NCBI GenBank assembly: GCA_963663475.2
Contig: CAXXJV010000001.1
Location: 1 to 64,000 of the forward strand
DNA length: 64,000 nt
Direction of reading: 5' to 3'
Source: Candidatus Cloacimonadales bacterium
GTDB taxonomy: Bacteria; Cloacimonadota; Cloacimonadia; Cloacimonadales; JAFGVF01
A program made the position numbers and the translations under genes. A model generated the notes under the pieces. The model had not been told where the DNA came from and searched no databases. It saw only the letters and a list, made by a program, of their open reading frames with translations. Position 1 is the stretch's first letter. Every line of letters begins with the position of its first letter. Below are positions 31,037 to 62,248 of the stretch, piece after piece.

Positions 31037-31347
31037 AGCTATATCATCCTTTATAAAATTTACAGAACTAATATAAATGCTGTTATTATTAGTCAAGTCA
31101 AATCTTTATTTAGCCTAAATAATCCTGAAGGAGACTGTTCAACCCGAATGGTGCAGTAGAACTTTGATGAAGAGTGCTAGATTCTTTTAGCAAAATAGCT
31201 TACAGAATTTTGACGCATATATTTTATGGCTCTTGTTCAAGTCTGGTGGTAAATAAGAGACTTTCATTATAGCATATTGCTTGAATAATAGAAATTTACA
31301 AGTAAGAATATACTGTTAAGAGTATGTTTTATTTGATGATAAGTACT

Positions 31348-31665
31348 AAATCCTGAAGGGATAAGTCTTAAATCCTCAAAGAGGATAAATAGTTTAGCCT
31401 AGGGTAAATTCCTGAAGGAAATGCAACCCTGGGTACTAGTGATGAAAAACAAAGCCTAACCCTGAAAGGGTTAAATAACATCATATATACCATAGACTTA
31501 TACAATAATATATTATTTATCATTTTATTAAACCCTTACAGGGTAACATCTTTGGGCTAGCCATCATTACCCAGGGTTGCGATACTTTCAGCATCTTACC
31601 CTGGGCTAAATTATTTTATCCCTTTGAGTCTTCGCTAAAGCTACGCCCCACAAGTCAGGGATTTT
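31348..31665. repeat. Long imperfect inverted repeat, non-autonomous IS200/REP-type element
   Basis: CTCAAAGAGGATAAATAGTTTAGCCTAGGGTAA...CCCTGAAAGGGTT pairs with AACCCTTACAGGG...TTACCCTGGGCTAAATTATTTTATCCCTTTGAG. Confidence 0.7.
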
Positions 31666-43157: not shown

Positions 43158-44044
43158 CGGGTTTCCTCCTTAAACACAGGAATTTCGCTAATAGACTTAA
43201 CTATCACCCCACCCCTGCTTATATTAATAATCTTATTATAAACATCTATAATTAAATCATCTGGAGTTGATGCTCCAGCACTGATTCCAATTTTATTTTT
43301 ATTAGTGCACCAGTCTGCATGCAATTCTTCAGCAGTTTCAATATGATAAGTTTCGGTATAGTTATTTGAGATTTTAGCTAACATTTTCGTGTTAGAACTC
43401 ATCTTACCACCGATAACAATCATAAGGTCACTAGCCTTGGCTAAAGCCCTAGTAGAATCTTGCCTTATAGTCGTAGCACTACAAATAGTATTAACTATAT
43501 GTAACTCAAAAGTTGTGTCAAGTAATTTTTTTACTATTTTTTCAAAAACTTCATATGTTTGAGTAGTTTGCGAAATCAAAGCCAGCTTTTTTCCCTTTAA
43601 ATTGGGGATTTCTTCTGGCGATTCCACAACTAAATATTTTCCAGTTAAATATGAAGTTAATGCTAAAACTTCTGGATGTTGACTATTTCCGAGTACGACA
43701 ACAAAGTATCCTTCTTTAGATAATTTCTCTCCCATAGATTGTAATTTACTCACATAGGGGCAGGTAGCATCTATTACATCAAGGCCTTTATCAGCCAGTT
43801 CTTTTTTAGCTTCCTTAGAAATACCATGAGATCTGATGATAGCAGGTGTTTTTGTAATTGCAGAAATATCATCTACGGAGTAAACACCTTTTTTCTCTAA
43901 TCTTTGCACAACTTGGGGGTTATGGATTATAGGTCCAATAGTAACAAGTTTCTCAGCTCTTTTTTCTGCTTCACTTTCAGCTATCTTAATAGCTCTTTTA
44001 ACGCCAAAGCAGAAACCAGAATTTTTAGCTAATCTTATTTGCAT
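43154..44044 (-). CDS. ispH: 4-hydroxy-3-methylbut-2-enyl diphosphate reductase
   Basis: 'GFCFGVKRA', 'IIHN', 'DATCP', 'TICSAT', 'SSNT', 'AGASTP'. Confidence 0.96.
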   Translation of the reverse strand: MQIRLAKNSGFCFGVKRAIKIAESEAEKRAEKLVTIGPIIHNPQVVQRLEKKGVYSVDDISAITKTPAIIRSHGISKEAKKELADKGLDVIDATCPYVSKLQSMGEKLSKEGYFVVVLGNSQHPEVLALTSYLTGKYLVVESPEEIPNLKGKKLALISQTTQTYEVFEKIVKKLLDTTFELHIVNTICSATTIRQDSTRALAKASDLMIVIGGKMSSNTKMLAKISNNYTETYHIETAEELHADWCTNKNKIGISAGASTPDDLIIDVYNKIINISRGGVIVKSISEIPVFKEETR

Positions 44045-44636
44045 CTTTCAATCCATTTATAATTTCTAAGATTTTACGAGATAGGTCTCGGTAACTATCT
44101 TTATTAACGGGTAAATCTTGATAAAAGCTAGGGTTCAATGGCTGGCCAATATGCATCCTGAGTTTTTTAATTCTCAAGAGGCATTGTAGCAAGTGGTTGC
44201 TATTTTCCAAATAAATTGGGAGAATGCTAGATTTGGTATTCATAGCTAGCATTCCAATACCTGGTTTAGCAATAAATGACTTTCTTGAACCTTCGGGAAA
44301 AATAACGATTGTTTCATCATTATTTAGAATATTATTTATGGTAGTTAAGGCTCTTTTATCGACTACTCCTCGTCTGACTGGTGTTGCATTGAATTTGGAA
44401 ATCAACCAGCCAAAAGGCTTGAATTTAAAGAGTTCTTCTTTAGCCATAAAGTGGATAGCTATTGGCATAGTTGAACCAATCAAGGGAGGGTCAAAATTAG
44501 ACATATGGTTAGAGGCTATAATGCAGCGGTGAGAAAAAACATCTTGTAAATTCTCTCTGCCAATTATTTTTAAGCCAAAAACATATTTAAATATTATGTT
44601 TACACTTTTTGAGATAATTCTATAATATGCTTTCAC
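44025..44636 (-). CDS. plsC: 1-acyl-sn-glycerol-3-phosphate acyltransferase
   Basis: 'NHMSNFD', 'FMAKEELF', 'FPEGSR'. Confidence 0.9.
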   Translation of the reverse strand: MKAYYRIISKSVNIIFKYVFGLKIIGRENLQDVFSHRCIIASNHMSNFDPPLIGSTMPIAIHFMAKEELFKFKPFGWLISKFNATPVRRGVVDKRALTTINNILNNDETIVIFPEGSRKSFIAKPGIGMLAMNTKSSILPIYLENSNHLLQCLLRIKKLRMHIGQPLNPSFYQDLPVNKDSYRDLSRKILEIINGLKDANKIS

Positions 44637-45319
44637 TTTCCCTTCCTAATGTAAGCCATAATTTCGGCAACTTGTTCTTGAATAGAGAGATTAGTAGAAT
44701 CAATAAGAATAGCATCTTCAGCTTGTTTTAAAGGAGCAATAGCCCTGTGAGAATCATTATAATCTCTACTTTCTAGCTCTGCTTTCACCTCTGCAAAAGA
44801 CTTTTCAGATCCCTTAGCCTTTTCTTCTAAATAGCGTCTCTGTGCCCTCTCTTCTAAATCAGCTACCATAAAGAATTTAAAGTCGGCATTAGGAAAGACG
44901 ACTGTTCCGATATCTCTTCCATCCATAACAATACCTTTATTCTGGCCTAGTTTTCTCTGTAAAGCTGTCATACCCTGTCTAACTATTCCAATAGCAGAAA
45001 TATCCGAGGCCAGCTTTCCTACTTGAGGTTGTCTGATAGCTTGAGATACATCTTCCCCATCTAATAAAACCCTATTATTAGGCAGTGAGTATTTGATTTG
45101 CACATCAATTTCTGCCATCATTTTGGTTAAAGCAGGAATATCACTTAAGGCTATTCCTAGACGATGAGCTTTTAAACCGCAGGCTCTATACATTGCTCCA
45201 GTATCTAAATAGACATAGTGTAAATGCTTTGCTAATTCTTTAGCAGTAGTAGACTTACCTGATGAAGCAGGTCCATCAATAGCAATTATAAATTTATTAG
45301 TTTTAGTGTTTTTTTCCAT
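44633..45319 (-). CDS. cmk: Cytidylate kinase
   Basis: 'IAIDGPASSGKST', 'DTGAMYR', 'DGRDIGTVV'. Confidence 0.96.
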   Translation of the reverse strand: MEKNTKTNKFIIAIDGPASSGKSTTAKELAKHLHYVYLDTGAMYRACGLKAHRLGIALSDIPALTKMMAEIDVQIKYSLPNNRVLLDGEDVSQAIRQPQVGKLASDISAIGIVRQGMTALQRKLGQNKGIVMDGRDIGTVVFPNADFKFFMVADLEERAQRRYLEEKAKGSEKSFAEVKAELESRDYNDSHRAIAPLKQAEDAILIDSTNLSIQEQVAEIMAYIRKGK

Positions 45320-45439
45320 ATTAGACTATTTTCCATTATTTTCAAAAATAGTCAAATGTTTTTTTCTAAGAAAATACAAGAAACTGCCTTGATTCCCCTC
45401 AGAGGAAGAGTAATCAAGGCAGTCTAATCTTTTGTGAAG

Positions 45440-47359
45440 CTATTTTTTAAGAATCATTTTCTGGGTCCAAGACGCTTTATTGCTGGTCATTCGGTAGAAG
45501 TAGACTCCGCTTGCCACCTTTTGATCTTTATTAGTTACGCCATTCCAGTTTATGCTATAATCACCTGCCTGGCCATGAATCACCGACTTATGCCAAATCT
45601 TTCTACCAGCGATATTAAAGATTTCAATTTCCACTCTACCAGCTTCTTCTAAAGAATAAGAGATTGTAGTAGAAGGATTAAATGGATTTGGATAGGCATT
45701 ATGAAGTCTGGTTTGCTGGGGGATATCTATTACTGGGTTTTCAAAATTATCTTCAATAAGGATAGTGATTGGTCCATGATAATAATTATTACCAGAGAGT
45801 TCGCTTATTTTCAACCAATAATAATATCTTCCACTTTCTTTTAAATTATTATCTACAAAGCTATAATTATGAGTCAAAGATGTATTAGTAGCATCAACAA
45901 TTGAACCCACCTGACTAGCAAGTGCAAGGTCATTTTCTGGAGCTCTTAAAACATTAAAGCCATATAAATCTGATTCACTATGAGTTACCCAATCCAAGGA
46001 AACTGTGTAATCACCTGAGTAAACACCAGTAAAGGAAGCAAAGGTTACTGGTAAGGTTGCATCTTCGGGAGAGATAATTACTGGGACATCACTTTTACTG
46101 GCAAAAGGCACATTTGAGAATAAGACTTGAGAAGGTCCAGTAGCAGGATATGGGTTACCTTGATGCCATGTTAAGCCACCATTCTCAGGATCATTATAAT
46201 AGGCTATGACATACCAAGTACCTGCAGGAACAGCTATGTTGAGATTACTGGTAGTTGAGCCATTAAAGACCATTACTATATCATTATCTGTAGTATTTGC
46301 TGGTGAAGGTACTCCTAATGTTTCAATAGATCCTTGAGTAGCAGTAATTGGAACATCCACCTGTCCACTATAAGTAAAGCCAGGATTAACAGGATCATCT
46401 AAAGTAAAAGTTCCTACAAAAGAAATATTTTTATTGCTACTTAAATTACTTAAGATATTGCTATCTGAGCCAGAAGCTAAGGTCCATATATAGTTATCCT
46501 TTTCAGCAGAGACAGTGCCACTGAAGCCATTTTCAAGGCTAATTTTTCCAGGGTCATTTCCATAATTTTGAGTATCTGCATATATGGTTACTCCACTTAT
46601 ATTACCAGTATTTATATTTATTGAATAATAAGGAACATTATCAGACCAAGATGCATTTACTAAAGTAGCATTATAATTGCTATTTGCACTATTGATGACT
46701 GTTGTTCCGGAACCTGTATCAAAGAGAAATTCAGCCAAGAGATTGTCACCAGTTACTGAATTGAAACGATTATCAGCTATTTCAGTTTGAGAACGGGCGA
46801 TCTTCCAGATACGAACTTGATCAATATTACCAATCAGGTTACGCCAATCATTAGTTCTGCTATCGATAGCACCAATCAAAAGTCTCTTTGAAGTGGTAGG
46901 AATACTTATAGAATGATATAAGGAAGCTTTTTCAGCACCATTCACATATAATTTAACCTCGTTACCATTGTAGGTAGCAGCTACATGTTGCCATTTATTC
47001 AAAGTTAAGACATTATTTGCTGTGCAATCAGTCCAGTTACTGCCACCATTACTCATATTAAATTCTAATGTTCCCGATGCAGACCCATACCTAAAAGACC
47101 AGCCATAGGTAATTGATCCATCCTCATCATCCCAATCTGTTTCAGCAGCTATTGTACTCCTCCAAGAAGTATCTTTAAAGTTTGTGGGATAAATCCAGGC
47201 TTCAATTGTTAGATTGTTTGTGAGGTCATAGTAAGTTGAATTTCCACAATCAAGATACTGTCCTTCCCCATTGAACTGCAGAGAATGTTCACTTCCACTA
47301 AGACTTACACCAAAGAAGACCATACAAGTTAAGAAAATAAGAAAAGTTTTTAGAGACAT
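45440..47359 (-). CDS. Secreted LamG/concanavalin-like protein with FlgD-Ig/T9SS-like CTD
   Basis: Signal peptide; 'LTIEAWIYP...WQHVAATY...LYVNG...IDQVRIW'; 'LPVTFASF'; 'NAYPNPFNPSTTI'. Confidence 0.85.
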   Translation of the reverse strand: MSLKTFLIFLTCMVFFGVSLSGSEHSLQFNGEGQYLDCGNSTYYDLTNNLTIEAWIYPTNFKDTSWRSTIAAETDWDDEDGSITYGWSFRYGSASGTLEFNMSNGGSNWTDCTANNVLTLNKWQHVAATYNGNEVKLYVNGAEKASLYHSISIPTTSKRLLIGAIDSRTNDWRNLIGNIDQVRIWKIARSQTEIADNRFNSVTGDNLLAEFLFDTGSGTTVINSANSNYNATLVNASWSDNVPYYSININTGNISGVTIYADTQNYGNDPGKISLENGFSGTVSAEKDNYIWTLASGSDSNILSNLSSNKNISFVGTFTLDDPVNPGFTYSGQVDVPITATQGSIETLGVPSPANTTDNDIVMVFNGSTTSNLNIAVPAGTWYVIAYYNDPENGGLTWHQGNPYPATGPSQVLFSNVPFASKSDVPVIISPEDATLPVTFASFTGVYSGDYTVSLDWVTHSESDLYGFNVLRAPENDLALASQVGSIVDATNTSLTHNYSFVDNNLKESGRYYYWLKISELSGNNYYHGPITILIEDNFENPVIDIPQQTRLHNAYPNPFNPSTTISYSLEEAGRVEIEIFNIAGRKIWHKSVIHGQAGDYSINWNGVTNKDQKVASGVYFYRMTSNKASWTQKMILKK

Positions 47360-47409
47360 ATAAATACTCCTTTTATATTAATTTAATAATTTTATTTTCT
47401 CTTTATTAG

Positions 47410-47426
47410 TGCAAATCATAGGCCAA
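47410..47426 (-). promoter_or_regulatory. Sigma54 (-24/-12) promoter upstream of the LamG gene
   Basis: Minus strand TTGGCCTATGATTTGCA, GG-N10-GC spacing; inverted repeat AGTGAAAA-N7-TTTTCACT at 47518-47540 as possible UAS. Confidence 0.65.
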
Positions 47427-47554
47427 GAATAGTCAAAAAATGCTAGTTATTAAAGGACTAATTTACAGATAGATAGCAAAAATAAATATTTTCATTTTAA
47501 AAAGTTTTCATATATTTAGTGAAAATGAAAACTTTTCACTGAAAACTCTTAGTC

Positions 47555-47880
47555 AGAGTGACGGGAGTTGCTCACGGAGTAGCAACTTCCGACACTCTTC
47601 GCCCGAAGTCCCTTGCCTACGGCTGAGGAACTCCGGTCTGTGTTTACTCTCCCCGCCTTACGGCACCCCTCTCATACCGCTCTTACGAGCTGAAAGGGGA
47701 ATTAGAGCTCTCCGTCTCCCTATCTCCCTGTCTCCCCGTCTTTAAGCCGAAAGGCGAAAATCTTCTTATTCGTGTTTTATTTGTGTTTATTTGTGGCTAA
47801 ACTCTTCTTCTTATCTATGTTTTTTGTAGGCAGTTTGAAACTGCCTACTGCGGGCAAGGATGCCCGCGTTCCCAGTTAGA
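47555..47880. repeat. Mosaic cluster of several palindromic REP-like repeat families
   Basis: Units shared with 5864-5900, 8786-8826, 11940-11980, 50230-50450, 55495-55760 and 57845-57945. Confidence 0.8.
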
Positions 47881-47883
47881 ATC

Positions 47884-50115
47884 TTATTTCTTCTTTTGAT
47901 TAATACTAGTATAAGCTTGCAGATTATATTTTTCGATTCTTCTAGTCATGGTAGAATTACTCATCATTAAGAATTTAGCAGCATCCCTCCGGATTCCTTT
48001 GAAACGTATTAAGGCTTTAATAATTTTTTCTCTTTCATCTTCATTATCTGCACATATAGAGTTTTTTTCACCAAAATTCAAGGAACATATTTCAGCAAGT
48101 AATTGAGCATCCCAGTAGTTACTTTGCCCAAGAATAAACATTTTTTCAATAATATTTTTTAGTTCTCTGACATTTCCTGGGAAGTTATAGTCTTGCAAGT
48201 AGCTTATAAAAGAAGAATGAATTTCGGGAGCTAGTTTTTTATGTTCATTGCAAAAGATGTTAATAAAGTGGTCTACGAGAAGAGGGATATCTTCTTTTCT
48301 GTCTCTGAGTGGAGGGATAACAATTTCTATAGTATTAATGCGGTAAAGGAGATCTAATCTAAATAAATCATTATTTACCAGATCAATAATATCTCTATTG
48401 GAAGAGGAAATTATTCTAGCATCAAAGCTAACCTCATTACAAGAACCTACAGGTATTACTTTTCTACTTTCTAGAACACGTAATAGTTTAGCTTGGAATC
48501 CAACAGGGATTTCTGATATTTCATCAATGAATAGAGTCCCCTTATGGGCTTTAAGAAAGAGTCCTTTTTCATCACTAATAGCTCCAGTATAAGAACCTTT
48601 TTTATGGCCAAAGAGTTCGCTTTCCATTAAACTTGAGGAGATTGCTGCAGCATTAATAGGGATAAAGGGGTAATCTTTTCTAGGACTAGCATTATGAATA
48701 AAGTTAGCAATAAGATCTTTCCCTGTGCCAGATTCCCCACGAAGTAAAACATTAGCATTTGGTTCTTTAGCAAGCAACAAAGCAGTCTGTAGAATTTTAC
48801 GGCTAGCTTGACTGACACCTACAAAGTCTCCCCTAGCAAACATGTTATTTGAGGAAGGAGTTTTATTAAATTTAGTAAAATCTAGATTTGTAATTTCATG
48901 AGAATTTTCTTGGTTTTTAAGTTTGTTTATATCTTTAAGTAAATCATCTTGGATCTTTTTCATTAAAGAGAAGCACTTCTTATAATCTTGCTTACTATCA
49001 TATAATTGGACAAGCTTTTCTCTAGCATGGCGAAAGTGTTCTTTAAGCTTGTATTTCTTGCTAGTCTTCAGACTTTTCAGGAATAAAATCTCAGCTCTAT
49101 CATATTCCCCTGTATCCATTAACATCTTGCCCAGATTGAGATAAATTTCTTGTTCAGCAACTATATCACCAATTTCTGAAGCAATTTTAACTGCTTTATC
49201 CATATCTGAAATTGCCTTATTGAAGTCACCCTTTAAAGCATGAGCAATTGCATAATTATTATACAAATCTAGGAGAAATTCGGGCACATTAAAGGTATTT
49301 TCTTGAGCAAGTTGTCTGCAAGTATCCAAATAACTGATGGCTTCTGTGAAAGAATTACTTTTTATTTTTAATACAGCTAAGTTAAAGACAACCTGGATTC
49401 TTTGAATCATCAACCCAAGATTTATACTAAGAGTGTTAGCCTCTAATAAGTGTTTTTCTGCTTCGGGAAAGCGTTTCAAATCTTGTAAAACTTTTGCTAG
49501 ACTTGTATCTAAAAGTAAAGTAAATTGCTGATTATCCTCTCTTTTGCTAATTTCCATTCCCATATAAAGATAGTTTAGTGCTTTGTCTAACTGCTTGTCT
49601 GATATATAAATATTAGCTAAACTTAATAATGATTGGAGCTTTATCTGGGATTCTCCCTGATTTGCTAAAATCTCTTGAACTTGCTTATGAAAATCTTCTG
49701 CTAACGCGAAATTGTTGAGTCTAAAATATGAATCACCTCTATAGGCCAAAACAGCAGCTAAGAGTAAACTATCCTCTGCTTGTCTAGCATTTTTTTCAGC
49801 AGTATCTAGATATAATTTTTCTTGCTTTAGATCATTACGGAAGCAAAGACTCAGTAAGAGATTGGCATGAACTAAGAAAAAATGATTATTATCTGAAATT
49901 GCCTTGGTCAGAATTTCCTTCAGTAGGGGTTCTGCTAACTCATAACGCCCAATCTTTGTATAGGCGTAAGCATCAATAAATAAGAAATGATTCTCAGAAA
50001 GACCTTCATATTTTTGTCTATAGTCCTGAGACTTTTGCAAATATTCCACAGGATTTTTATGACAGACATCTCTTAAAGTCTTAAATTTCTCTTCCAAATG
50101 ACTTGTTTTTTTCAT
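47884..50115 (-). CDS. TPR-domain sigma54-dependent enhancer-binding protein (Fis-type HTH)
   Basis: TPR repeats; GESGTGKD; ESELFGHKKGSYTGA; LFIDEI; FRLDLLYRI; FPGNVRELKN; start set at MKKTSH. Confidence 0.9.
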   Translation of the reverse strand: MKKTSHLEEKFKTLRDVCHKNPVEYLQKSQDYRQKYEGLSENHFLFIDAYAYTKIGRYELAEPLLKEILTKAISDNNHFFLVHANLLLSLCFRNDLKQEKLYLDTAEKNARQAEDSLLLAAVLAYRGDSYFRLNNFALAEDFHKQVQEILANQGESQIKLQSLLSLANIYISDKQLDKALNYLYMGMEISKREDNQQFTLLLDTSLAKVLQDLKRFPEAEKHLLEANTLSINLGLMIQRIQVVFNLAVLKIKSNSFTEAISYLDTCRQLAQENTFNVPEFLLDLYNNYAIAHALKGDFNKAISDMDKAVKIASEIGDIVAEQEIYLNLGKMLMDTGEYDRAEILFLKSLKTSKKYKLKEHFRHAREKLVQLYDSKQDYKKCFSLMKKIQDDLLKDINKLKNQENSHEITNLDFTKFNKTPSSNNMFARGDFVGVSQASRKILQTALLLAKEPNANVLLRGESGTGKDLIANFIHNASPRKDYPFIPINAAAISSSLMESELFGHKKGSYTGAISDEKGLFLKAHKGTLFIDEISEIPVGFQAKLLRVLESRKVIPVGSCNEVSFDARIISSSNRDIIDLVNNDLFRLDLLYRINTIEIVIPPLRDRKEDIPLLVDHFINIFCNEHKKLAPEIHSSFISYLQDYNFPGNVRELKNIIEKMFILGQSNYWDAQLLAEICSLNFGEKNSICADNEDEREKIIKALIRFKGIRRDAAKFLMMSNSTMTRRIEKYNLQAYTSINQKKK

Positions 50116-50221
50116 TTTTTCTTCCCTAATAAAATCTATATAAAAACAATTATCTCCAACTAAGGAGCAATCTGTCAAGTTTATTCTCACTTTCCCATGG
50201 ACTTCTTTACCCATTAAGGCC

Positions 50222-50585
50222 CACACAAGAAGACGGGGTGACGGGGAGAAAGAAGTTTTTCGCCTTTCGGCTCAAAGACGGGGTGACGGGACTAACTGGG
50301 AACGCGAGCATCCTTGCTCGCAGTAGGCAGTATAAAACAGCCTATAAAAGAAAGTTTTCTCCTTTCGGATCAAAGACGGAGAGACGGGACTAACTGGGAA
50401 CGCGAGCATCCTTGCTCGCAGTAGGCAGTTTCAAACTGCCTACAAAAGAAGTCTATCCACGGATTTCACGAATTTCACGGATTTTTTAAGAACCTTAACA
50501 CAGAGTTCACAGAGGTTACCACAGACTTTTAAGAAGGAAGATTCTTCACACAAATTACCACAAATTGAGACGAATTTCACGAATT
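50222..50585. repeat. Mosaic REP-like repeat cluster, inverted relative to 47700-47880
   Basis: Two copies of TAACTGGGAACGCGAGCATCCTTGCTCGCAGTAGGCAG plus CACAGAG/CACGAAT repeats. Confidence 0.8.
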
Positions 50586-50592
50586 ATTTTTT

Positions 50593-50987
50593 ACTAAAAG
50601 CAACAATATTAAGCTAATTACAGGTTCATTAAGTAAAGCTAAATGGCTATATGAAGGGAAAAAGCAAGAGCACTATGAAAATATGGAGAAAATAAAAGCC
50701 GAAGTCAATACAATCAACAAATTATTGACAGTTTACAAGACAATGATAATATGTATTTAGCTGTTAATAAAGTTAATAAAAACCATACTTTAAAAAGGGT
50801 TAAATATCATCATCTAGGTGATAAAGGTCTTAAAAAACACCTATTTACTATCTTCTTGGTTAAAGATGGTAAGATTGTTACCAGTCACTTAAAACCAGAG
50901 CCTAAGATATTGCCAAAGGTTAAAGATAAAGCAATAAAGGTTGTTAGTATTAATAATGGTAAACAAAGAATAATTAAGGAAGCTATC
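50593..50987 (+). pseudogene. Truncated, frameshifted copy of the MuF toxin-like tip
   Basis: Aligns with 5973-7457 from 'LTSKDVKTI...AEW'; 1-nt loss at the HxxKHG motif (~50685-50695); no MuF domain. Confidence 0.7.
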
Positions 50988-51380
50988 ATGAAAAAAGAAG
51001 ATTATTGGAATGAACATAACTCTTATGACAGCATTATAGCAGAGGTCGAGGATAACAAGAAGTGGTGTAACTATCCCATGAACTGCTTAGTAGATTGGTA
51101 TCATTATGTCCCCAGTGAGTTAGAAGATGATGAAGACTGGCATTGGGAATTAGATAGATCTATTCCTGCCCGTTATGATATTCATACCCTGATCATGAAT
51201 GACTACAACTTCACCCAAGAAGAAAGAAAGCTAATAGAGAGAACTGATAAAAAACTCTTAGATAACATAGATTATTACTTTAAGAAGATTAGAGTTATAA
51301 GCCCTGATGAACTATCAGAGTTTTTGATTTGGTTGCAGGATGCTAGAGTAGCAGAGAAGAATGAAGAATCTCACTCATAA
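50988..51380 (+). CDS. Orphan immunity-like protein (MKKEDYWNEHNSY...), paralogue of 7032-7457
   Basis: AAGGAAG before ATG; near-identical protein to the C-terminal part of the prophage MuF ORF; frame is also open from 50751. Confidence 0.6.
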   Translation: MKKEDYWNEHNSYDSIIAEVEDNKKWCNYPMNCLVDWYHYVPSELEDDEDWHWELDRSIPARYDIHTLIMNDYNFTQEERKLIERTDKKLLDNIDYYFKKIRVISPDELSEFLIWLQDARVAEKNEESHS

Positions 51381-51675
51381 GTTCACTAATCACACAAAGG
51401 AGTTGATAGAAAGATAGTAGAAAATCTATAAACCACCTGAAAAGGATAAATACCTAAACCTAGGTAAAAGCCTGACTTATGATACCAAAGAATAGTCATG
51501 TAGCAAAAACCTGTCTCCCAGAGTAATTATGCTAGGCCAGGATTTTTACCCTCTTAAGATCTAGTAAATTTTTTTTATAAGTGTCATTTATCACTAATAC
51601 CTTTTGTTTTTACACAATCTGGCCCACCACCTGCAGACATAAAAGCCTTTACTAAATCTGCTTTTTCCCTATAAG

Positions 51676-51755
51676 CATCCTTATACCTTCCTTTACAGTC
51701 TTTCGATGAAACCTGGACTTTCATCGAAAGACTGTAAAGGAAGGATTAAGAATGG
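51676..51755. repeat. Second copy of the long palindrome, with the loop inverted (CCTGGAC)
   Basis: Perfect 26-bp arms at 51686-51711 and 51719-51744. Confidence 0.8.
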
Positions 51756-52089
51756 TAAGAGGATTTTTACGGATAATTATCAGGTTTGATGAGAAATTAT
51801 CTTGTACAGAATAGGGAGAGTAAACAATCCCCTTTCAGCTCTTTATCTCTAATGTAAATATCCCTAACACAGAGTTCACAGAGGTTAAGAGGAATTTCAC
51901 AGAGTTTTTAAGAACTAACTAAACTCTAAAATCTTAAATTATTATCATACTCATGTTTTTGTGTCTCTTGTGTGATTCTCTTAATTCCCCTTTCAGCTCG
52001 TAAGAGTGGTATGTGAGGGGATTGTTTACTCTCTCCAGCTATATAAGTAAGTTTCTTTGTACTTATTATAAAGCTCATTAATTCTCCTC

Positions 52090-54534
52090 TTATTTATATC
52101 TTTTCATCTTAACGTAGTCTTCTCTTCTAAATTGAATAATATCTTTCACAAAAAATGTAATTTCTTTGTTATATTTTTCTATTAGTTCTAAGTCCTCTTT
52201 GTTGAGTTCTAGATAAAAGCTTTTGTTTTCCCAATCGTAATTAAAGAGAGATTTTGGGTTTTTAGATAAATAGTATATAGGATTTCTTTCAGCTAAAGAT
52301 GCCCAGTCTTTATCAGTCCATTTTTCATAATCACGATTACTATTATTTGTAAGGTCATGAGAATTTATTGCAGATTTGTAGAAGAGCTTAAAGCTAGCAA
52401 CGATATTATCGAGGCTAATTCGAGTTTGTAGTTTATCTTTTTGGATGAGAGAAAGAATTGTAGGCATTTTATAAAGCTTAGTCATAGAAGTTTTTTCGAT
52501 TTCTATTAATAGTTTAGCCAGATTAGACTCTATCAAATCAGAGAAAATTTGATTATCAGGAAAGATTAAGTGAAGGAAATTTAGCCAAGACCCAAATTTT
52601 TTAATGTAGATTTTGCCTGGGAAATCAGAAGCAGAGTTAAATTCACTTAAGGAATAAGGGTTATTTAAGCTTTCTTGCAATTCCTTATAGTTACTAATAA
52701 GTTTTTCTTTGATATTGATTTTTTTAGCACGGAGAATTGCAAAGATATCTATCAACTGAGTATCTATATCTAAACTACAACCAACTGGAAGTTTTTCAAG
52801 AGTTTGTTCAAGTGTAAAGCTTGCTTTATCTTTATCTTCATTCAAATCCCGAGGGGTAAAACCTGACAGATATGCTAGTTTAAGATGGCTATTTTTATAA
52901 TTTCCTACTAAATCAATAACAGTTAGATGTTTTTTATTTGGATTGGTTCTGAGTCCTCTACCGAGTTGCTGGATAAAGATAGTAAAGGATTCGGTTGGTC
53001 TTAAGAACATTACTGTATCAATTTGGGGAATATCAATACCTTCGTTAAAGATATCAACAACACACAGAATATCTATATCTCCCTTAGAGAATTTACTAAT
53101 AAGTTGTGAGCGATTAGGGCTATTAGAATGCAGTGCATAAGCCTTGATATTTTCCTTTCTAAATTGTTCAGCAGTATAATTGGCATGCCTGATAGAACAA
53201 CAGAAGGCTAGAGTATGTTTGCCAGCCTTTTCTCGATAATTTTTAATAATATTATCACTTCTTTTCTTAACTAAAAAAGCATTTTCGAGAGCATTCAAAT
53301 CATATTTTCCTGAACGCCAGGGGATATTTTCATAATCAACATCATCATAAATAGCGTAGTAAGAAAAGGGGACTAACCAGCCATTATTGATAGCTGTTAT
53401 GAAGTTACATTCAAAGGGGATGTTATAATCACAGTATTGATAAATATCTTTATTATCAAGTCTATCAGGAGTAGCAGTAAGTCCAAGCAGAAATTTAGGT
53501 TTAAAGTAATCGAGGAAATTTAAATAAGAAGGAGCTGCTGAATGGTGAAATTCATCAACAATAATATAATCAAAATAATCAGGGGTAAAGATATCGTTAT
53601 TATGATATATTGATTTACCCAGAGTAGAAATTGAACCAAAAATTATATCTTTATCAGTATCTTTCCTATTAGCTTTGAAGTAACCAAAGCTAGCACTTGG
53701 TCTAATTTTTTTAAAGGTAGCATAAGCTTGATCTAGAATCTCTTCACGGTGGGCAATGAAAAGAACTCGTCTAAAGTTTTTAGAGTCAAAAGCTGAAAGA
53801 AAGGTCTTACCCAATCCAGTTGCCATAATTATAAGAGCTTTATCAATTCCTTCTTGCCTAGCCCTGTCTAATTCATATAAAGCTGGAACTTGGCATTTTA
53901 TTGGTTTGTAATTACTTTTAGTCAATTGTTCTGGAAGGGTGTTATCTTCAGCTAGCTCTTCAACAGGATTATCAGAAGAGCTTGGTTCAACAGAATATTG
54001 AAAATCACTATTTTTTAGTGGTTTATATTCAATGAGATATTTATAAAGCCATTCATCACTAGGAGTGAAAGAGTAGTTTTCGTAAATATCATCATACTGG
54101 GATAAAAAGTCATTAATAACCTCTTTCTCATCAATGATAATATTCCATTCAAGTCCAGTGGTTAATGCTGATTTTGACAGGTTAGAAGATCCGATAATCA
54201 TCTGCTCATTTTCTTCTATAAATTTAAAATAATAACCCTTGATATGGAAAGATGTTTTTAACTTATCATGATCAAATATTGCTAATGATAAGTTATCTTC
54301 TTTTAATGATTTAAGTTTATATAAGGCAACAGGTTCAGTAACATTTAAATAGGTACTTGTAAGGATGCTGATCTTTGCCTTGTTCTTCAAAGCATATTTT
54401 AAGTAGTTGAATAATAGTTCAACCCCTGAATTCTTAATAAAGGAAACACAAAAAATGATTTCTTTAGCTGATGCTAGCTTCTCTTTCAAGATTGTCTCTA
54501 GAGATTTTTTACTGGAGTTGGTGATTGCTTCCAT
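52090..54534 (-). CDS. PLD (HKD) nuclease + SF2 DEAD/DEAH helicase fusion (SauUSI/NgoFVII-like restriction-type enzyme)
   Basis: 'FHIKGY...IIGSSNLS'; 'MATGLGKT'; 'DEFHH'; 'GLTATP'; 'QQLGRGLR'. Confidence 0.9.
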   Translation of the reverse strand: MEAITNSSKKSLETILKEKLASAKEIIFCVSFIKNSGVELLFNYLKYALKNKAKISILTSTYLNVTEPVALYKLKSLKEDNLSLAIFDHDKLKTSFHIKGYYFKFIEENEQMIIGSSNLSKSALTTGLEWNIIIDEKEVINDFLSQYDDIYENYSFTPSDEWLYKYLIEYKPLKNSDFQYSVEPSSSDNPVEELAEDNTLPEQLTKSNYKPIKCQVPALYELDRARQEGIDKALIIMATGLGKTFLSAFDSKNFRRVLFIAHREEILDQAYATFKKIRPSASFGYFKANRKDTDKDIIFGSISTLGKSIYHNNDIFTPDYFDYIIVDEFHHSAAPSYLNFLDYFKPKFLLGLTATPDRLDNKDIYQYCDYNIPFECNFITAINNGWLVPFSYYAIYDDVDYENIPWRSGKYDLNALENAFLVKKRSDNIIKNYREKAGKHTLAFCCSIRHANYTAEQFRKENIKAYALHSNSPNRSQLISKFSKGDIDILCVVDIFNEGIDIPQIDTVMFLRPTESFTIFIQQLGRGLRTNPNKKHLTVIDLVGNYKNSHLKLAYLSGFTPRDLNEDKDKASFTLEQTLEKLPVGCSLDIDTQLIDIFAILRAKKINIKEKLISNYKELQESLNNPYSLSEFNSASDFPGKIYIKKFGSWLNFLHLIFPDNQIFSDLIESNLAKLLIEIEKTSMTKLYKMPTILSLIQKDKLQTRISLDNIVASFKLFYKSAINSHDLTNNSNRDYEKWTDKDWASLAERNPIYYLSKNPKSLFNYDWENKSFYLELNKEDLELIEKYNKEITFFVKDIIQFRREDYVKMKRYK

Positions 54535-55435: not shown

Positions 55436-55820
55436 CTTGCACCACAAAGGATCAAAGACACGAAGAAGAAGATTTTCTAATATCTCTTGTTGTTGTAGGC
55501 AGTTTTAAAACTGCCTACTGCGAGCAAGGATGCTCGCGTTCCCAGTTAAATTGCGAGCAAGGATGCTCACGTTCCCAGTTAGATTGCGAGCAAGGATGCT
55601 CGCGTTCCCAGTTAGAATCTTCTTTCTCTCAGTCTCTCTATCTCTTTATCTCTCTATCTCTCCGTATTTGAGTCAAAAGGCGGAAATCTTCTTATTCGTG
55701 TTTTATTTGTGTTTATTTGTGGCTGAACTCTTCTTCTTATCTGTGTTTTTTGTGGCTTACTTTTTCATCTCAAAACTCTGTGTAACTCTGTGGTAACCTC
55801 TGTGAACTCTGTGTTAAGGA
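55436..55820. repeat. Mosaic REP-like repeat cluster including three tandem TGCGAGCAAGGATGCTCRCGTTCCCAGTTA units
   Basis: Direct sequence; shares blocks with 47700-47880. Confidence 0.8.
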
Positions 55821-55837
55821 CTTTTTCTTCTTGACAC

Positions 55838-56342
55838 CTGCGTAAACGCGGGCTGGAATCCCGCGACCCAATCCGTAACCACTTTATTATCTGCGTAAAC
55901 GCGGGCTGGAATCCCGCGACCCAATCCGTAACCACTTTATTATCTGCGTAAACGCGGGCTGGAATCCCGCGACCCAATCCCATAACCGCTTGTCATCTGC
56001 GTAAACGCGGGCTGGAATCCCGCGACACAATCCCATAACCGCTTGTCATCTGCGTAAAGGCGGGCTGGAATCCCGCGACCCAATCCCATAACCGCTTGTC
56101 ACCTGCGTAAACGCGGGCTGGAATCCCGCGACCCAATCCAGTAACCACTTTATTATCTGCGTAACCGCGGGCTGGAATCCCGCGACACAATCCCATAACC
56201 GCTTGTCATCTGCGTAAAGGCGGGCTGGAATCCCGCGACCCAATCCGTAACCACTTTATTATCTGCGTAAACGCGGGCTGGAATCCCGCGACCCAATCCC
56301 ATAACCGCTTGTCATCTGCGTAAAGGCGGGCTGGAATCCCGC
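55838..56342. repeat. Tandem array of ten ~53-bp units with palindrome CGCGGGCTGGAATCCCGCG and two alternating linker types
   Basis: Unit starts at 55838, 55891, 55944, 55997, 56050, 56103, 56157, 56210, 56263, 56316. Confidence 0.9.
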
Positions 56343-56567
56343 TGAGCGAGCCAATTCGCGTTAATTCGTGTAAAGAATCGTGTCAAGTACCAATATAGTG
56401 GACACCTTTTTTATGTATCCTGAGTCATGTATCTCTTTTGAAAAATGAGACATTTACTCATACTTTTGAGTTCTGTTGTCGACTCCATTTTGCATTCGTA
56501 ATTTAGTCGCATTTTCCAAAAGAAAATACATTCAGCTAAGTATCTGTTCATCATCTGGTAACCTCTT

Positions 56568-57353
56568 TTAATGATTTGCAAAATCATTTGGAGTAAAATA
56601 CCCCAAACTTTTGTGAAGTCTCTGAGAGTTATAGATCATTACTGCATCTTTAGTAGCTTTTTTAAGACTTTCTATAGTGCTAAATGTCCGATTTAAACCA
56701 AATTCATGCTTCATTGTGCAGTTTATTCTTTCAGCAATAGGGTTATCATAGCATTTACCATCACCAGTCATACTAATCTTTATACCATGCTTTTTCAGAA
56801 GGCTAATAGTCTCATTACTTGTATATTGAGAACCATGATCTGAATGATGAATAAGATCGTTAGCATTATCAACATGGTTTAGCTGTCTTTTTAACATCCT
56901 TATATGATTATCAGTCAACATATTAGAAGAAACTTCATAATCCAATATCTGTCTAGTATACATATCACTTAGCAAAAACAAATAATAAAACCCTTTGCCT
57001 TTAGAAATATAAGTAATATCAGTTACCCAAACTTGATTTTTCCTCTTTACTTCGGTATCTTTAAGTAAATTAGGATATACCTTACTACCATCTGATATTG
57101 AAGTTTTGCAATATTTCTTCTTCTTCCTGATCAACATATTATGTTCTTTAAGCAGGCAGTTAAGATGATTTCTCCCAATTTTAAAACCATCATTATGTAG
57201 CATTTTCCAACATTTATAAGTGCCTGCATAAGGCTGAATTTTTCTATATTGTTTAACTCTGGAAAGACATAGGGAGTCATTTGTAGAACTCTGGGAGACA
57301 GTTTGAAGATATTTATAGTAACCTGATTTAGATACTTGTAATAAACTACACAT
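56568..57353 (-). CDS. IS3 transposase OrfB (DDE integrase core), probably expressed as an OrfAB fusion
   Basis: 'WVTDITY', 'HHSDHGSQY', 'CYDNPIAERIN..MKHE', 'YNSQRLHKSLG'; -1 frame open from the slippery site. Confidence 0.93.
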   Translation of the reverse strand: MCSLLQVSKSGYYKYLQTVSQSSTNDSLCLSRVKQYRKIQPYAGTYKCWKMLHNDGFKIGRNHLNCLLKEHNMLIRKKKKYCKTSISDGSKVYPNLLKDTEVKRKNQVWVTDITYISKGKGFYYLFLLSDMYTRQILDYEVSSNMLTDNHIRMLKRQLNHVDNANDLIHHSDHGSQYTSNETISLLKKHGIKISMTGDGKCYDNPIAERINCTMKHEFGLNRTFSTIESLKKATKDAVMIYNSQRLHKSLGYFTPNDFANH

Positions 57354-57358
57354 TTGGC

Positions 57359-57781
57359 TTATTCCTGACCTTTTAGCAACCTTGAAATCAAGAGTTTCTG
57401 AGTATCTTCTGATAAACCTGAATCGATCTTTTTTTTTAAATCAATACCATTTTGTTCTGCAATATAATGAATATATTTCTCTAGAACTTCGTTGGAGAAC
57501 TGACTATCTTCTAATGCTCGTTTTAACTGCTTATTCTCTTTCCTTAAAAGGTCAGATTCACGTATTTCTCTATCGGTCATAACTACCACCTTTTTTCCCA
57601 CTCGTTCATTCATACCATAATTGGCAACCCATCTACTCACATTGCTATCTGAAATATTGTAAAGTCTACAAGCTCCAGCTTGAGTTAAATCTCCCTTCTC
57701 TATTTCGTCAACAACTTTAATTTTAAAACTTTCACTATAGGTCTTTTGAATCTTATGAGTCATATTCTTTTTTCTTTCCAT
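57359..57781 (-). CDS. IS3 transposase OrfA (HTH)
   Basis: 'YSESFKIKVV...ACRLYNIS..NVSRWV', leucine zipper, 'LKKK' slippery region. Confidence 0.9.
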   Translation of the reverse strand: MERKKNMTHKIQKTYSESFKIKVVDEIEKGDLTQAGACRLYNISDSNVSRWVANYGMNERVGKKVVVMTDREIRESDLLRKENKQLKRALEDSQFSNEVLEKYIHYIAEQNGIDLKKKIDSGLSEDTQKLLISRLLKGQE

Positions 57782-58075
57782 TTCAAGCTCCTAGTTTGTT
57801 TAATTTTCTAGTCCACTTTTATGGAACGACACATCGAAGGGGAATGTTTACTCTCCCCGCCTTACGGCACCCCTCTCATACCGCTCTTACGAGCTGAAAG
57901 GGGGATGTTTACTCTCCCCGCCTTACAGCACCCCTAGCATACCGCTCTGACAAATTGAACTGAAAAAAAAATAATCTTTTTTTCAAAAAAAAGGACCATA
58001 TTGAGAAAAATGGCCTCTTAAAGATTATGAAGGGCTTGCAAGCGTTCAGAAAAAAAATATTAAGAGGTAAAAGAA

Positions 58076-59694: not shown

Positions 59695-60260
59695 CCAAGT
59701 AGTGGAGTAGGATTTTAGGGAAGAGTGCAGATTCTTCTAGCAAAACAAGTTACAGAAATTGAAAGCATATAATCCCAGATAGTGTAGTAGGGCTTTAGTA
59801 ATTCTTAGCTAAAGCTAGGCATCACAGGTGAAGATTGCAGATTATTCTAGCAAAATAGCTTACAGAATTTTGACGCCTATATTTTATATATTCGGAGAAA
59901 TTATGGATCTTACTTTTGCTGAAGAATATTCTGCTATTCACATTAGGCTACTGCACTATTTGGGCTATATCCCCTTTTCCAGGGGATTTTTTTAATCCAA
60001 GTAGTCTAGAGAATTTAAGGGGAGATTGCAACTTCTGGGATTATTCTCTCTTCTCAAAAAAAGTAACAGAACAGTATTTTAAAACCAATCAGTCAGTTAA
60101 GCCTAAGATATAATTTTGAGGAAATATTTTGATCATCACTTTAATCTCTTATTTAATAGTCTTTTAAGATTTTTTTTTATGTCTAAGAATAAAATCCTTG
60201 CCAAAATAGATTAAATAAGATAAGTTGGAAAAAAATACTAAATAATTTAGATAGGGAATA

Positions 60261-61706
60261 ATGTTCAAAGAAAAGCTTAACACAGATTTCATTGTAAAAT
60301 TTAACAATTATATTGTAGAAAACAGGTTAATAGAGAAGAAGAGTAAGATCCTTGTTGGATTTTCAGGAGGACCAGACTCTACTGCCCTTCTACTTGCCTT
60401 GTTAATGATAAAGGATAGTTTAGATTTATCTATCCTAGTTGCTCATGTAAATTATAATTTACGGGGGGATGATTCTCAAGCAGATGAGGCTTTTGTTAGA
60501 GATTTTTGCTTTTCTCACAACCTCTATTTAGTGATCAATCGGGTAGAGATTGACGGTGGTTCTAATATGGAGGCTACTGCAAGAGATATCAGAATGAATT
60601 ATTTTTACAGTCTTTTAAAAGATTACAAGTTAGATGCAATAGCTTTAGGGCATAATTACAGTGATAATGCTGAAACTGTTATGATGAATCTTGTTAGAGG
60701 GGCTGGGATAACAGGTCTAAGGGGTATATTACCCAAGTACAATCAAATAATTCATCCTTTATTAAGCTTTACTAGGCAAGAAATTTGTGCTTTTCTGATG
60801 AGTCAAAACATAGCTTGGCGGGAAGACAAGAGTAACCAGGAATCTACCTTTACTAGGAACAAGATAAGAAATGATTTATTCCCTTGGATTGAAGAGAATT
60901 TAAATCCTGCCATAGTTGATAAGATGGTATCTTTATCAACAATGATGATAGAGACTGAAGATTTTTTAGAGGATTATCTTGAACGTTCTTTTAAGCGGTA
61001 TGTAGTTAAGCAAAGTGATGATAAAATTACCCTATCCTTAAGAACTATTCTGCACACTAAGAGGATTCTCAGATACTATATTTTTAAGAAATGCCTCTTT
61101 CAGCTTAGGGGAACAGACAGTGATATTTATCAAAACAATATCTTAGAAATAGAGAATATTCTTACTTCAGATGGTTCTAAGATGCTTAATTTCCCTAACA
61201 AGATTTATGTGATAAAGGAATATGATTATTTAGTTTTTACCAAAAAGAATCCTTTAACAAAGCAAGAGAACATACCAGATGCTAAAGTTATTGATTCTCT
61301 TAGGCCACGACTTAGTTTTGGTAAGTATAGAATTAAGATGAAGCGGATAAAGAAAATACCTTCCGAGAAGTCTTTAGTAAATAATAAGAATTTAGTATTT
61401 TTAGATTATGATGAGATAAACTTTCCTATAACAATAAGAAATAGAGATAATGGAGATAGATTTATACCCTTAGGTTTAAAGGGATTTAAGAAGTTAAAAG
61501 ATTTTTTCATTGACGAAAAAGTGTCTAAATTCGATAGAGATAAGATACCTATTTTTACTGATTCAGATAAAATAATTTGGGTTGGAGGAATGAGGATAGA
61601 TAATAGGGTTGCTATTAGTGAGAAAACTACTAGTATTTTAAGAATAGAATTAGAAAAAGTAAATAATAAAAAAATGCGTTCAGCTGAACGAAAACAAAAA
61701 GGATAA
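60261..61706 (+). CDS. tilS: tRNA(Ile)-lysidine synthetase
   Basis: 'SGGPDS', 'HVNYNLRG', 'GHNYSDNAET', 'RNKIR', TilS C-terminal domain. Confidence 0.96.
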   Translation: MFKEKLNTDFIVKFNNYIVENRLIEKKSKILVGFSGGPDSTALLLALLMIKDSLDLSILVAHVNYNLRGDDSQADEAFVRDFCFSHNLYLVINRVEIDGGSNMEATARDIRMNYFYSLLKDYKLDAIALGHNYSDNAETVMMNLVRGAGITGLRGILPKYNQIIHPLLSFTRQEICAFLMSQNIAWREDKSNQESTFTRNKIRNDLFPWIEENLNPAIVDKMVSLSTMMIETEDFLEDYLERSFKRYVVKQSDDKITLSLRTILHTKRILRYYIFKKCLFQLRGTDSDIYQNNILEIENILTSDGSKMLNFPNKIYVIKEYDYLVFTKKNPLTKQENIPDAKVIDSLRPRLSFGKYRIKMKRIKKIPSEKSLVNNKNLVFLDYDEINFPITIRNRDNGDRFIPLGLKGFKKLKDFFIDEKVSKFDRDKIPIFTDSDKIIWVGGMRIDNRVAISEKTTSILRIELEKVNNKKMRSAERKQKG

Positions 61707-61711
61707 ATTTT

Positions 61712-62248
61712 ATGATACAAGATATATCTGCAATAATGTTTGATGAAAGACAAATTAATACAAGAATTAAAGAGTTAGGTGAACAGATTTCTAAAGATTA
61801 CTGTGGTAAATACCCTGTACTCCTTTGCATTTTAAAAGGTGCATCTATGTTTATGGCTGATTTAATGAGAGCTATAACAATACCAGTTGAGATAGATTTT
61901 ATGGCAATTTCAAGTTATGGAGATAGTAGAAAATCTTCTGGGGTAGTGAAAATTAAGAAAGATGTTGATGTAAATTTAGAAGATAGAGATGTGATTATTG
62001 TTGAAGATATTGTTGATACTGGTTTATCACTCAAATATCTTAAAGAGTATATTAATAAGCACAATCCAAGTTCTTTAGCAACTTGCGTTTTATTAGATAA
62101 GCCTAGTGGTCATAAGATTGAAGTTTCTGTGGAGTATATTGGTTTCCAAGTAGCTAATGAGTTTGTTGTTGGTTACGGTTTGGACTTTGCCCAGAAATAT
62201 CGTAACCTACCTTTCATAGGTATTCTTAAGGAGGATGTTTATTCATGA
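61712..62248 (+). CDS. hpt: Hypoxanthine phosphoribosyltransferase
   Basis: 'ILKGA', 'IVEDIVDTG', 'LLDK', 'FVVGYGLD...YRNLP'. Confidence 0.96.
   Translation: MIQDISAIMFDERQINTRIKELGEQISKDYCGKYPVLLCILKGASMFMADLMRAITIPVEIDFMAISSYGDSRKSSGVVKIKKDVDVNLEDRDVIIVEDIVDTGLSLKYLKEYINKHNPSSLATCVLLDKPSGHKIEVSVEYIGFQVANEFVVGYGLDFAQKYRNLPFIGILKEDVYS

Follow-up and report, generated by a model that had tools for sequence, protein, structure and literature searches.

Orphan toxin-immunity modules and orphan immunity genes occur in contact-dependent inhibition (CDI), Rhs and type VI secretion (T6SS) systems. Basic RNases with acidic protein inhibitors are also known, as in barnase-barstar and in colicins D and E5 with their immunity proteins. 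PBECR domains have a His in an N-terminal helix and a Ser/Thr in strand 4, and are common C-terminal partners of MuF (PMC5512222, in the part of the text considered here). We compared with these systems a fragment of a phage gene for a MuF-type protein (positions 50593 to ~51415, hereafter the orphan). It is located in the first 64,000 nt of contig CAXXJV010000001.1 of a Candidatus Cloacimonadales genome, a stretch that we refer to as the window. An earlier note on this DNA had described the orphan as a captured toxin-immunity tip of which the host kept the immunity part. Our results favor, if only modestly, a recent relic rather than a cassette that is maintained by the host.

The resident MuF gene of the window (5973-7457, + strand) encodes a protein of 494 amino acids (aa) in which a MuF domain is followed by the basic module A (6615-7031) and then by module B (7032-7457), which is acidic and helical. 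Pfam identified PF04233 (MuF) alone in this protein (residues 124-197, E 2.6e-07, 31.8 bits compared with a cutoff of 29.6), and PHROGs labels it as a minor head protein. The MuF domain is present in 8 of 14 aligned family members. The genome encodes four copies of the gene that are 100% identical (C1:5973, C1:1373840, C2:3179 on the minus strand, and C2:313534; C1 and C2 are contigs of the assembly). The likeness to a prophage gene over ~790 bp that the earlier note reported is real, and that prophage gene is present in four identical copies rather than one.

Alignment and whole-genome searches matched 50707-51374 of the orphan to 6751-7418 of the resident gene with 90.4% DNA identity over 670 aligned columns. 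A protein search matched 50679-51383 to MuF residues 249-485 with 85% identity and one internal stop. Homology reaches back to ~50593, and the segment at 50593-50706 resembles the resident gene weakly. Read in the frame of 50593, the orphan gives TKSNNIKLITGSLSKAKWLYEGKKQEHYEN. The same variant occurs in the intact MuF proteins P0008, P0006 and P0009, and the resident copy differs. Because the reading follows this intact allele, we consider the weak likeness of 50593-50706 to be a natural allelic difference and not decay. Module B of the orphan is close to the allele of a metagenomic phage contig (L021), in which module B ends a MuF-type ORF and is followed downstream by homologues of the prophage neck and portal genes. 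By sequence comparison, the orphan derives from a second natural allele, distinct from the one present in the four resident copies of this phage family. This agrees with the suggestion of the earlier note that the fragment came from a related phage (with a P0008-type 5' part and an L021-like module B).

Several lesions distinguish the orphan from its intact relatives. Dispersed repeats, clustered at 50228-50592, interrupt the gene at about residue 221 and take the place of its 5' part; the cluster includes two 98-nt units, with a repetitive extragenic palindrome-like (REP-like) hairpin in each. What remains of the first part of the RNase-like module A (TKSNN...EHYE, 50593-50681, + strand) begins at about residue 221 of a MuF-type protein and has neither a MuF domain nor a start codon. 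After H-Y-E (codons 50671-50679), the homologous reading shifts from the frame of 50593 to that of the open reading frame (ORF), where it is KYGENKSRSQYNQQIID; the continuation of the orphan in this frame is KYGENKSRSQYNQQIIDSLQDNDNMYL. One base is missing in the A-run at 50678-50681, and the orphan has Tyr (50682-50684) at the second invariant His, H36 (the frameshift site and the Tyr codon together span 50678-50684, + strand). The rest of module A, which corresponds to the beta-sheet part of the BECR-like fold (50679-50987, + strand), is an open frame that continues into module B. The predicted ORF in this frame has 209 codons (50751-51380, + strand). Its ATG at 50751 is the first start codon in the frame, and has no ribosome-binding site. 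Phage_Mu_F was matched by Pfam in the resident gene and not in the 209-aa orphan ORF.

Given the absence of a start and of a MuF domain, the frameshift, and the Tyr at a His of the catalytic motif, module A of the orphan cannot be functional. Beyond the junction between the modules (AAGGAAG at 50976-50982, a 5-nt spacer and ATG 50988; 50976-50990, + strand), the 130 codons after the ATG are open, and 116 of 130 are identical to the resident copy. The 1-nt loss at the putative catalytic motif, the missing MuF domain, the toxin-like and broken character of the part before the ATG (here from a predicted BECR RNase fold, the frameshift and the lost His), and the intact, nearly identical protein after AAGGAAG-ATG 50988 were all recognized in the earlier note, and each is borne out by our analysis. 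Residual homology to the phage intergenic spacer continues past the stop codon to ~51415 (51381-51415, + strand). It includes the ribosome-binding site of the next phage gene (AAAGGAG, 51396-51402), and the start codon of that gene is absent.

Four sequencing runs were searched as assembled contigs. At the frameshift site, contigs from run X1 agree with the assembly, although this run may come from the very sample that was assembled. We also considered an assembly chimera and rejected it, as X1 contigs match 50726-51005 and 51239-51705 without differences (X1 being possibly the source of the assembly). Two short contigs from RNA run X20 align at 50910-51046 and 51096-51214, with 8 and 3 differences. 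These were rejected as derived from the orphan and are assigned to a related phage gene, because their unaligned continuations follow a MuF-type allele. Metagenome run X3 has contigs for the left flank and for the dispersed repeats, but none for 50666-51627 at ≥93% likeness; this is not evidence of absence.

The orphan is located in a strain-specific island. The closest congener (G006) is collinear with 43224-50070 and 60064-64000 of the window. The interval between these blocks is 2.2 kb in G006, with a different gene for a secreted protein, and 10 kb in this genome. The 10-kb island contains dispersed repeats, the orphan, a Type IV restriction-like PLD-helicase, a small S-adenosylmethionine (SAM) methyltransferase, satellite-like tandem arrays and an IS3-type element. 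Instead of the CAC-type simple repeats that had been noted at both ends of the orphan, we identified dispersed repeat families with ~20 to hundreds of genomic copies. A tblastn search of the prophage ORFs of at least 60 aa against 24000-64000 returned only the orphan, its antisense shadow and one 14-residue match at chance level, and PHROGs assigned no phage structural family to five neighboring ORFs. The earlier note had named surrounding phage remnants, as a sign of simple prophage decay, among the findings that would speak against its proposal. This objection does not apply, because no such remnants were found nearby.

We looked for signs that the host has retained module B. The ratio of non-synonymous to synonymous substitution rates (dN/dS) between orphan and resident gene is 0.167 overall, 0.19 before the internal ATG and 0.15 after it, and the bootstrap ranges overlap. 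Pairwise values cannot separate the phage phase from the host phase, because they mostly record divergence between two working phage genes. Changes within module B were assigned to branches using L021 as the third sequence, with the last two codons left out due to an indel. The ratios of synonymous to non-synonymous changes are 5:4 for the orphan, 15:13 for the resident copy and 5:3 for L021. The neutral expectation is 17% synonymous, and the departures have P values of 0.0099, 1.2e-05 and 0.005, respectively. Residues unique to the orphan make up 9 of 91 positions in the rest of module A, where they are less conservative, and 6 of 130 positions in module B, a difference that is not significant (Fisher p 0.17).

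A search for other copies in this genome and its relatives returned the four resident MuF copies, and the orphan was not found in any of six genomes of the same genus (0 of 6). Across the phylum, B-like sequences occur in 4 of 232 genomes, this genome counted. The claim that the host kept the immunity part is thus not sustained: the expected contrast in dN/dS across the internal ATG is not seen, the branch ratio of the orphan is like that of intact genes, and the copy was found in none of these congeners.

Module A (residues 215-353, 139 aa) is basic, with an isoelectric point (pI) of 9.5. Four of its residues (W23, H32, H36 and Y47) do not vary in any of the 10 homologues aligned. Folded alone, it gives a model (pLDDT 87.5, pTM 0.82) with three helices (8-20, 26-40 and 44-56) followed by a sheet (strands 60-66, 72-82, 88-96 and 101-108). 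H32 and H36 are in helix 26-40, and T104 and S105 are in strand 101-108; an alcoholic residue is retained in the aligned homologues. In an all-against-all structure search with module A, the first seven of seven rows are RNase toxins (Z 4.9-7.2). These are a CdiA-CT (8ey4_A; Z 7.2, root mean square deviation 2.2, 79 of 88 residues aligned), a Salmonella toxin-antitoxin system toxin (7vd7_A; Z 5.9), colicin D (5znm_B, Z 5.7, and 1tfk, Z 4.9), BrnT (3u97; Z 5.2), the CdiA-CT of NC101 (5i4q; Z 5.0) and a ribonuclease domain (3ao9; Z 5.0).

The layout of PBECR domains (an N-terminal helix and then four to five strands, with a His in the helix and Thr/Ser in strand 4) is found in module A. The fit rests on the consistent list of matches, the near-full coverage of small toxin chains, and the helix His together with T104/S105 in strand 4. 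In the model, module A has the BECR RNase-toxin fold with an invariant H-x-x-x-H, and the fold suggests that it acts as an RNase. We claim the fold and way of working rather than membership in a curated family, because no PBECR Pfam model matches.

When viral predicted structures were searched with Foldseek, no match reached E ≤ 0.001. Among the weaker rows (E 0.018-0.077) are three proteins from phages with lengths of ~456-514 aa, of which two carry the name minor capsid protein; we treat these as a lead only. Pfam at E ≤ 10 returned only chance-level rows for P0001 (modules A plus B), for the A piece, the B piece and the orphan module B. PHROGs has no family for the orphan ORF, PADLOC none for the orphan ORF or the MuF gene, and a PDB sequence search returned rows of E 1.6 only.

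Module B (residues 354-494 of the resident protein; 50988-51380, + strand, in the orphan, where 130 open codons are followed by a stop) is acidic and helical and belongs to no known family. Its pI is 4.6-4.8 (4.6 in the orphan), and that of its solitary homologues is 4.5-5.7. The matches in a fold search were all of a generic helical kind (Z up to 7.1, less than what counts as meaningful for helical proteins). No family was identified in Pfam, PADLOC or the ESM Atlas (best Atlas score 0.87, clusters all unnamed), and the orphan module B matched no known immunity family in these three resources. A scan of viral contigs with the B alignment gave 63 pattern matches, none of which was confirmed. 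A predicted complex of A and B scored 0.05 compared with a mark of 0.32, which counts neither for nor against binding.

The family of the last 280 residues includes four more full-length MuF proteins (475-483 aa, 64-79% identity), a 280-aa protein that ends within module A (P0009), a MuF protein that ends after module A (P0017) and distant MuF fusions (P0012, P0013 and P0015; 26-31% identity). It also includes solitary B proteins equivalent to just the last ~125 residues (P0002 and P0003, 131 aa; P0010, 127 aa; P0016, 118 aa) and proteins with two or three tandem copies of B (P0011, and P0014 of 420 aa). A Met is present at the point where the solitary proteins start in all close fused homologues except P0005 (Val), and also in the distant P0012 and P0015. 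A purine-rich ribosome-binding motif is present 5 nt before the junction ATG in four of the four DNA sequences compared (AAGGAAG in the resident gene and the orphan, AAGGAGG in L021 and AAAGGAG in L020). This motif is maintained even though the encoded residues change (K-E-A vs. K-G-V). The host 16S rRNA ends in a canonical anti-Shine-Dalgarno sequence, and ordinary genes in this genome use such motifs.

Module B is thus probably also translated alone, from the internal ribosome-binding site and ATG. We infer that the most likely role of free B is as an RNase inhibitor, based on the start signals at the junction, the charge pairing and the position directly after a domain with a toxin fold. 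The description of this part as immunity-like in the earlier note holds with regard to a separable acidic module with conserved start signals and solitary homologues, and the immunity role itself is putative. A promoter-like sequence (TTGACA-16-TAATAT, with an upstream TG) is located at 50725-50752, inside the coding sequence and ~240 nt before the internal ATG, and the same sequence occurs in the MuF copies near 6769-6796. This site could drive B independently of late phage transcription. Overall, the promoter scan was not above chance (11 sites compared with 6.8 +/- 2.5 expected).

Solitary B-like genes occur in three other genomes of the phylum. In G028 (L025, C1 808-1185 and 451-816), a solitary 125-aa B gene is found with a phage neck-gene homologue and adjoining cas2-cas1-cas9 genes, at the start of a 234-kb contig. 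G033 encodes a 112-aa B-like gene between a dipeptidase-like gene and pgk. The congener G001 (L024, C316 9425-10690) encodes a 421-aa protein of three tandem B-like repeats among housekeeping genes, and P0014 is alike.

Our preferred explanation is that 50593 to ~51415 represents the 3' part of a phage gene for a minor head protein, left stranded in the host chromosome. Stranding would have occurred via deletion or recombination among the dispersed repeats and insertion sequence (IS) elements of the 10-kb island. In the parent protein, the MuF domain would target the product to the capsid, and the RNase would be packaged with MuF and injected with the DNA. Module B would also be made separately from the start signals at the junction, and free B could restrain the RNase in the producing or lysogenic cell. 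The orphan module B would still be made if the region were transcribed. The 5' truncation at a repeat, the frameshift, the absence of the copy from the congeners searched, the flanking repeats, the nearby IS3-type element, the shorter and different interval in G006 and the equal dN/dS in both halves all support a relic.

The main alternative is that the orphan is a working immunity gene: the host would keep and express B from 50988, neutralizing the MuF RNase injected by phages, and the dead module A would be tolerated baggage. We consider this rather unlikely, although a number of observations weigh against a relic. The clear lesions are all outside module B, an open frame of 233 codons is present at 50679-51380, and both the ribosome-binding site and the ATG of B are intact. 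The orphan retains all 16 columns that are invariant in an alignment of eight B sequences (the orphan being one of the eight rows). Its substitution pattern (5:4 compared with 17% synonymous under neutrality, P 0.0099) is that of purifying selection and indicates little neutral decay. No other phage remnant surrounds the orphan, and a decaying prophage would be expected to leave some. The adjoining gene is a defense gene (PADLOC mREase_IV, E 1.2e-83), and solitary B-like genes are found in host contexts in the three genomes described above. Some caveats also apply to the preferred explanation. The frameshift is in a homopolymer and rests on the assembly. The structural Z scores for module A are each modest, Foldseek against the PDB gave no match at E ≤ 0.001 for the two-domain model or for module A alone, and none of the 14 family members matched a Pfam PBECR model at E ≤ 1.

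A kept immunity gene would also be consistent with the pairing of an acidic orphan B with a basic A, the junction signal that is conserved despite the change in residues, the solitary B genes of 112-131 aa, and the promoter-like site. Further, the A family is nearly always found with B, which is fused in four of five A-containing clusters (at 50% identity). However, little neutral decay since stranding fits a recent event as well as continued constraint, and the purifying signal may date wholly from the phage phase, as the intact branches look alike. The orphan was not found in congeners, B is rare in the phylum, and dN/dS does not set the broken half apart from the intact one. With B already encoded by four resident prophages, a further copy of 89% identity would bring little benefit unless its specificity differs. 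The promoter scan is at chance level, and inhibition by B is itself a putative function predicted from sequence.

Alternatively, B may not be an inhibitor at all. It could be another injected or virion component (such as an anti-defense or nucleic-acid-mimic module within a polyvalent protein), or an assembly factor made from a nested start, in which case the orphan would be a relic without meaning, and the solitary B genes would likewise be relics or else have been domesticated. Phage head genes often make assembly factors from nested in-frame starts. Here, all MuF proteins that have this A family and extend far enough carry B as an in-frame fusion (five of five MuF fusions in the search of longer proteins). 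Two to three tandem repeats of B in one polypeptide (P0011, P0014 and the 421-aa protein of G001) would be unusual for a simple cognate immunity protein, and the breakpoints of allele recombination are inside A and inside B, not at the module borders. In polyvalent phage proteins, independent effector domains that can also be found alone are joined in series (PMC5512222, in the part of the text considered here). This explanation is nonetheless unlikely, and somewhat less credible than a kept immunity gene. A ribosome-binding site and a Met are conserved exactly where the solitary homologues start, and toxin-immunity pairs show the same combination of an acidic with a basic partner and the same placement directly behind a toxin-fold domain (PMC5576092, main text). 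The structure searches suggest no other function for B, as the matches are generic helical ones.

A bolder form of the immunity explanation is that the MuF gene is a toxin-antitoxin pair in one reading frame, and that the solitary host B genes (the orphan, the G028 and G033 copies and the three-repeat G001 protein) are acquired protection against virion-delivered RNases. The solitary genes keep this idea alive and do not prove it; we regard it as doubtful, more so than either of the explanations considered above. It is highly improbable that the orphan serves tip switching as a silent store, in the manner of orphan cdiA-CT/cdiI or Rhs modules, from which an RNase allele could recombine into the resident MuF gene: in the first third of A the fragment does carry a different allele, and the 668 nt of 90% identity after it might serve as a recombination arm, but a second homology arm is missing on the upstream side (a dispersed repeat begins where the MuF domain is expected), the stored allele is frameshifted and without an invariant His, and the fragment is 43 kb from the nearest phage copy and outside any phage.

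The MuF copies are located in a phage-like element of ~25 kb, four copies of which are 94-99.9% identical (window 1-23265; C1:1366173-1391213; C2:305896-331003; C2:1-11050). Genes for terminase large subunit, portal, neck and tape-measure proteins were identified alongside the MuF gene. Both contigs of the assembly start inside a copy of the element. In the related contig L020, a large transposase-like ORF is found upstream of the same gene set, and the element may be transposable and Mu-like. L020 is filed as an archaeal metagenome-assembled genome. As it carries the MuF gene of a bacterial phage family, a replication-initiator-like gene and a transposase-like ORF, the archaeal assignment is probably a binning error. 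The ORF that follows the MuF gene (7468-8013) encodes 181 aa with a hydrophobic N-terminus and has no Pfam or PHROGs family; a separate small immunity ORF (<150 aa) directly downstream of MuF is not present. L021 has an unrelated 155-aa ORF in the same slot, and we conclude that this slot is variable.

The neighborhood of the orphan is rich in repeats and mobile sequences. Downstream dispersed repeats (51585-52075) include a hairpin element (51668-51762) with 44-nt arms and very many genomic copies; a 709-nt query around the hairpin gave 275 BLAST matches. Rfam on 50000-52200 gave only sub-threshold microRNA-hairpin rows, on this dispersed hairpin repeat. The restriction-like gene pair that the earlier note placed beside the orphan consists in part of such a gene: one member is a Type IV methyl-directed restriction-like enzyme with PLD nuclease and SF2 helicase domains (52090-54534, - strand), and the second is a small class-I SAM methyltransferase. 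The REP-like hairpin occurs twice on the + strand (50298-50419) and three times on the - strand to the right of the methyltransferase gene (55520-55609). These inverted clusters bracket 50.4-55.5 kb, which contains the orphan, the Type IV restriction-like gene and the methyltransferase. In a further REP-like copy (47850-47873, - strand), the stem is maintained by paired changes.

A tandem array at 55830-56342 has a 53-nt unit in 9.7 copies, with 89% matches. It is not CRISPR-like, because whole units repeat, and similar arrays occur elsewhere (including on C1 near 783, 1400, 215, 199, 670 and 792 kb). The IS3-type insertion sequence (56381-57833) has a helix-turn-helix transposase ORF and an rve integrase-core ORF, and at least eight near-identical copies are present in the genome. 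A dispersed repeat of ~400 nt (31227-31625) has at least nine copies of 89-99% identity elsewhere on C1.

Among described systems, the parent gene resembles the MuF polymorphic toxins (PMC5576092; Apk2 and Bxa in PMC11699363; main texts). In both cases a prophage gene of the head and packaging region encodes an N-terminal MuF domain and then a domain with a toxin fold, and a small acidic product is encoded directly after the toxin domain. Unlike in those main texts, the putative inhibitor here shares the ORF and its frame with the toxin-like domain and follows an internal start; it is not a separate downstream ORF. Further, the C-terminal parts are alleles of one family (60-90% identity) and not unrelated toxin domains. 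For the PBECR and MuF-C domains of polyvalent proteins, the part of the text considered (PMC5512222) describes no acidic module or inhibitor, whereas B is attached here. Among the titles listed in literature searches, none is on orphan immunity to MuF toxins, and the word "orphan" has no occurrence in the main texts of PMC5576092 and PMC11699363.

The orphan shares with the CDI, Rhs and T6SS orphans a truncated tip without a delivery domain, an intact putative immunity frame, and a position away from the full-length gene in a variable island. It differs in that it is not beside the parent locus, has no upstream homology for recombination and was not found in congeners, and delivery would be by a virion and not by a secretion system. 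With an ordinary prophage fragment or pseudogene it shares the 5' truncation, the frameshift, the lost start of the next gene, the flanking repeats and IS element, and the restriction to one strain. However, no other phage piece is nearby, and the lesions spare a frame of 233 codons. As in barnase-barstar and the colicins, a basic domain with an RNase fold (pI 9.5) is accompanied by an acidic partner (pI 4.6-4.8), but no relation of B to those inhibitors was detectable in either fold or sequence.

As a relic, the fragment itself is ordinary. It does expose a small unannotated family that combines MuF, a BECR-fold domain and an acidic module with a conserved internal start. If B is an RNase inhibitor, the family would represent MuF toxins in which the immunity function is nested in frame and not encoded downstream. 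In that case, the solitary host copies would extend the idea of orphan immunity from the toxins of secretion systems to effectors that are injected by virions.

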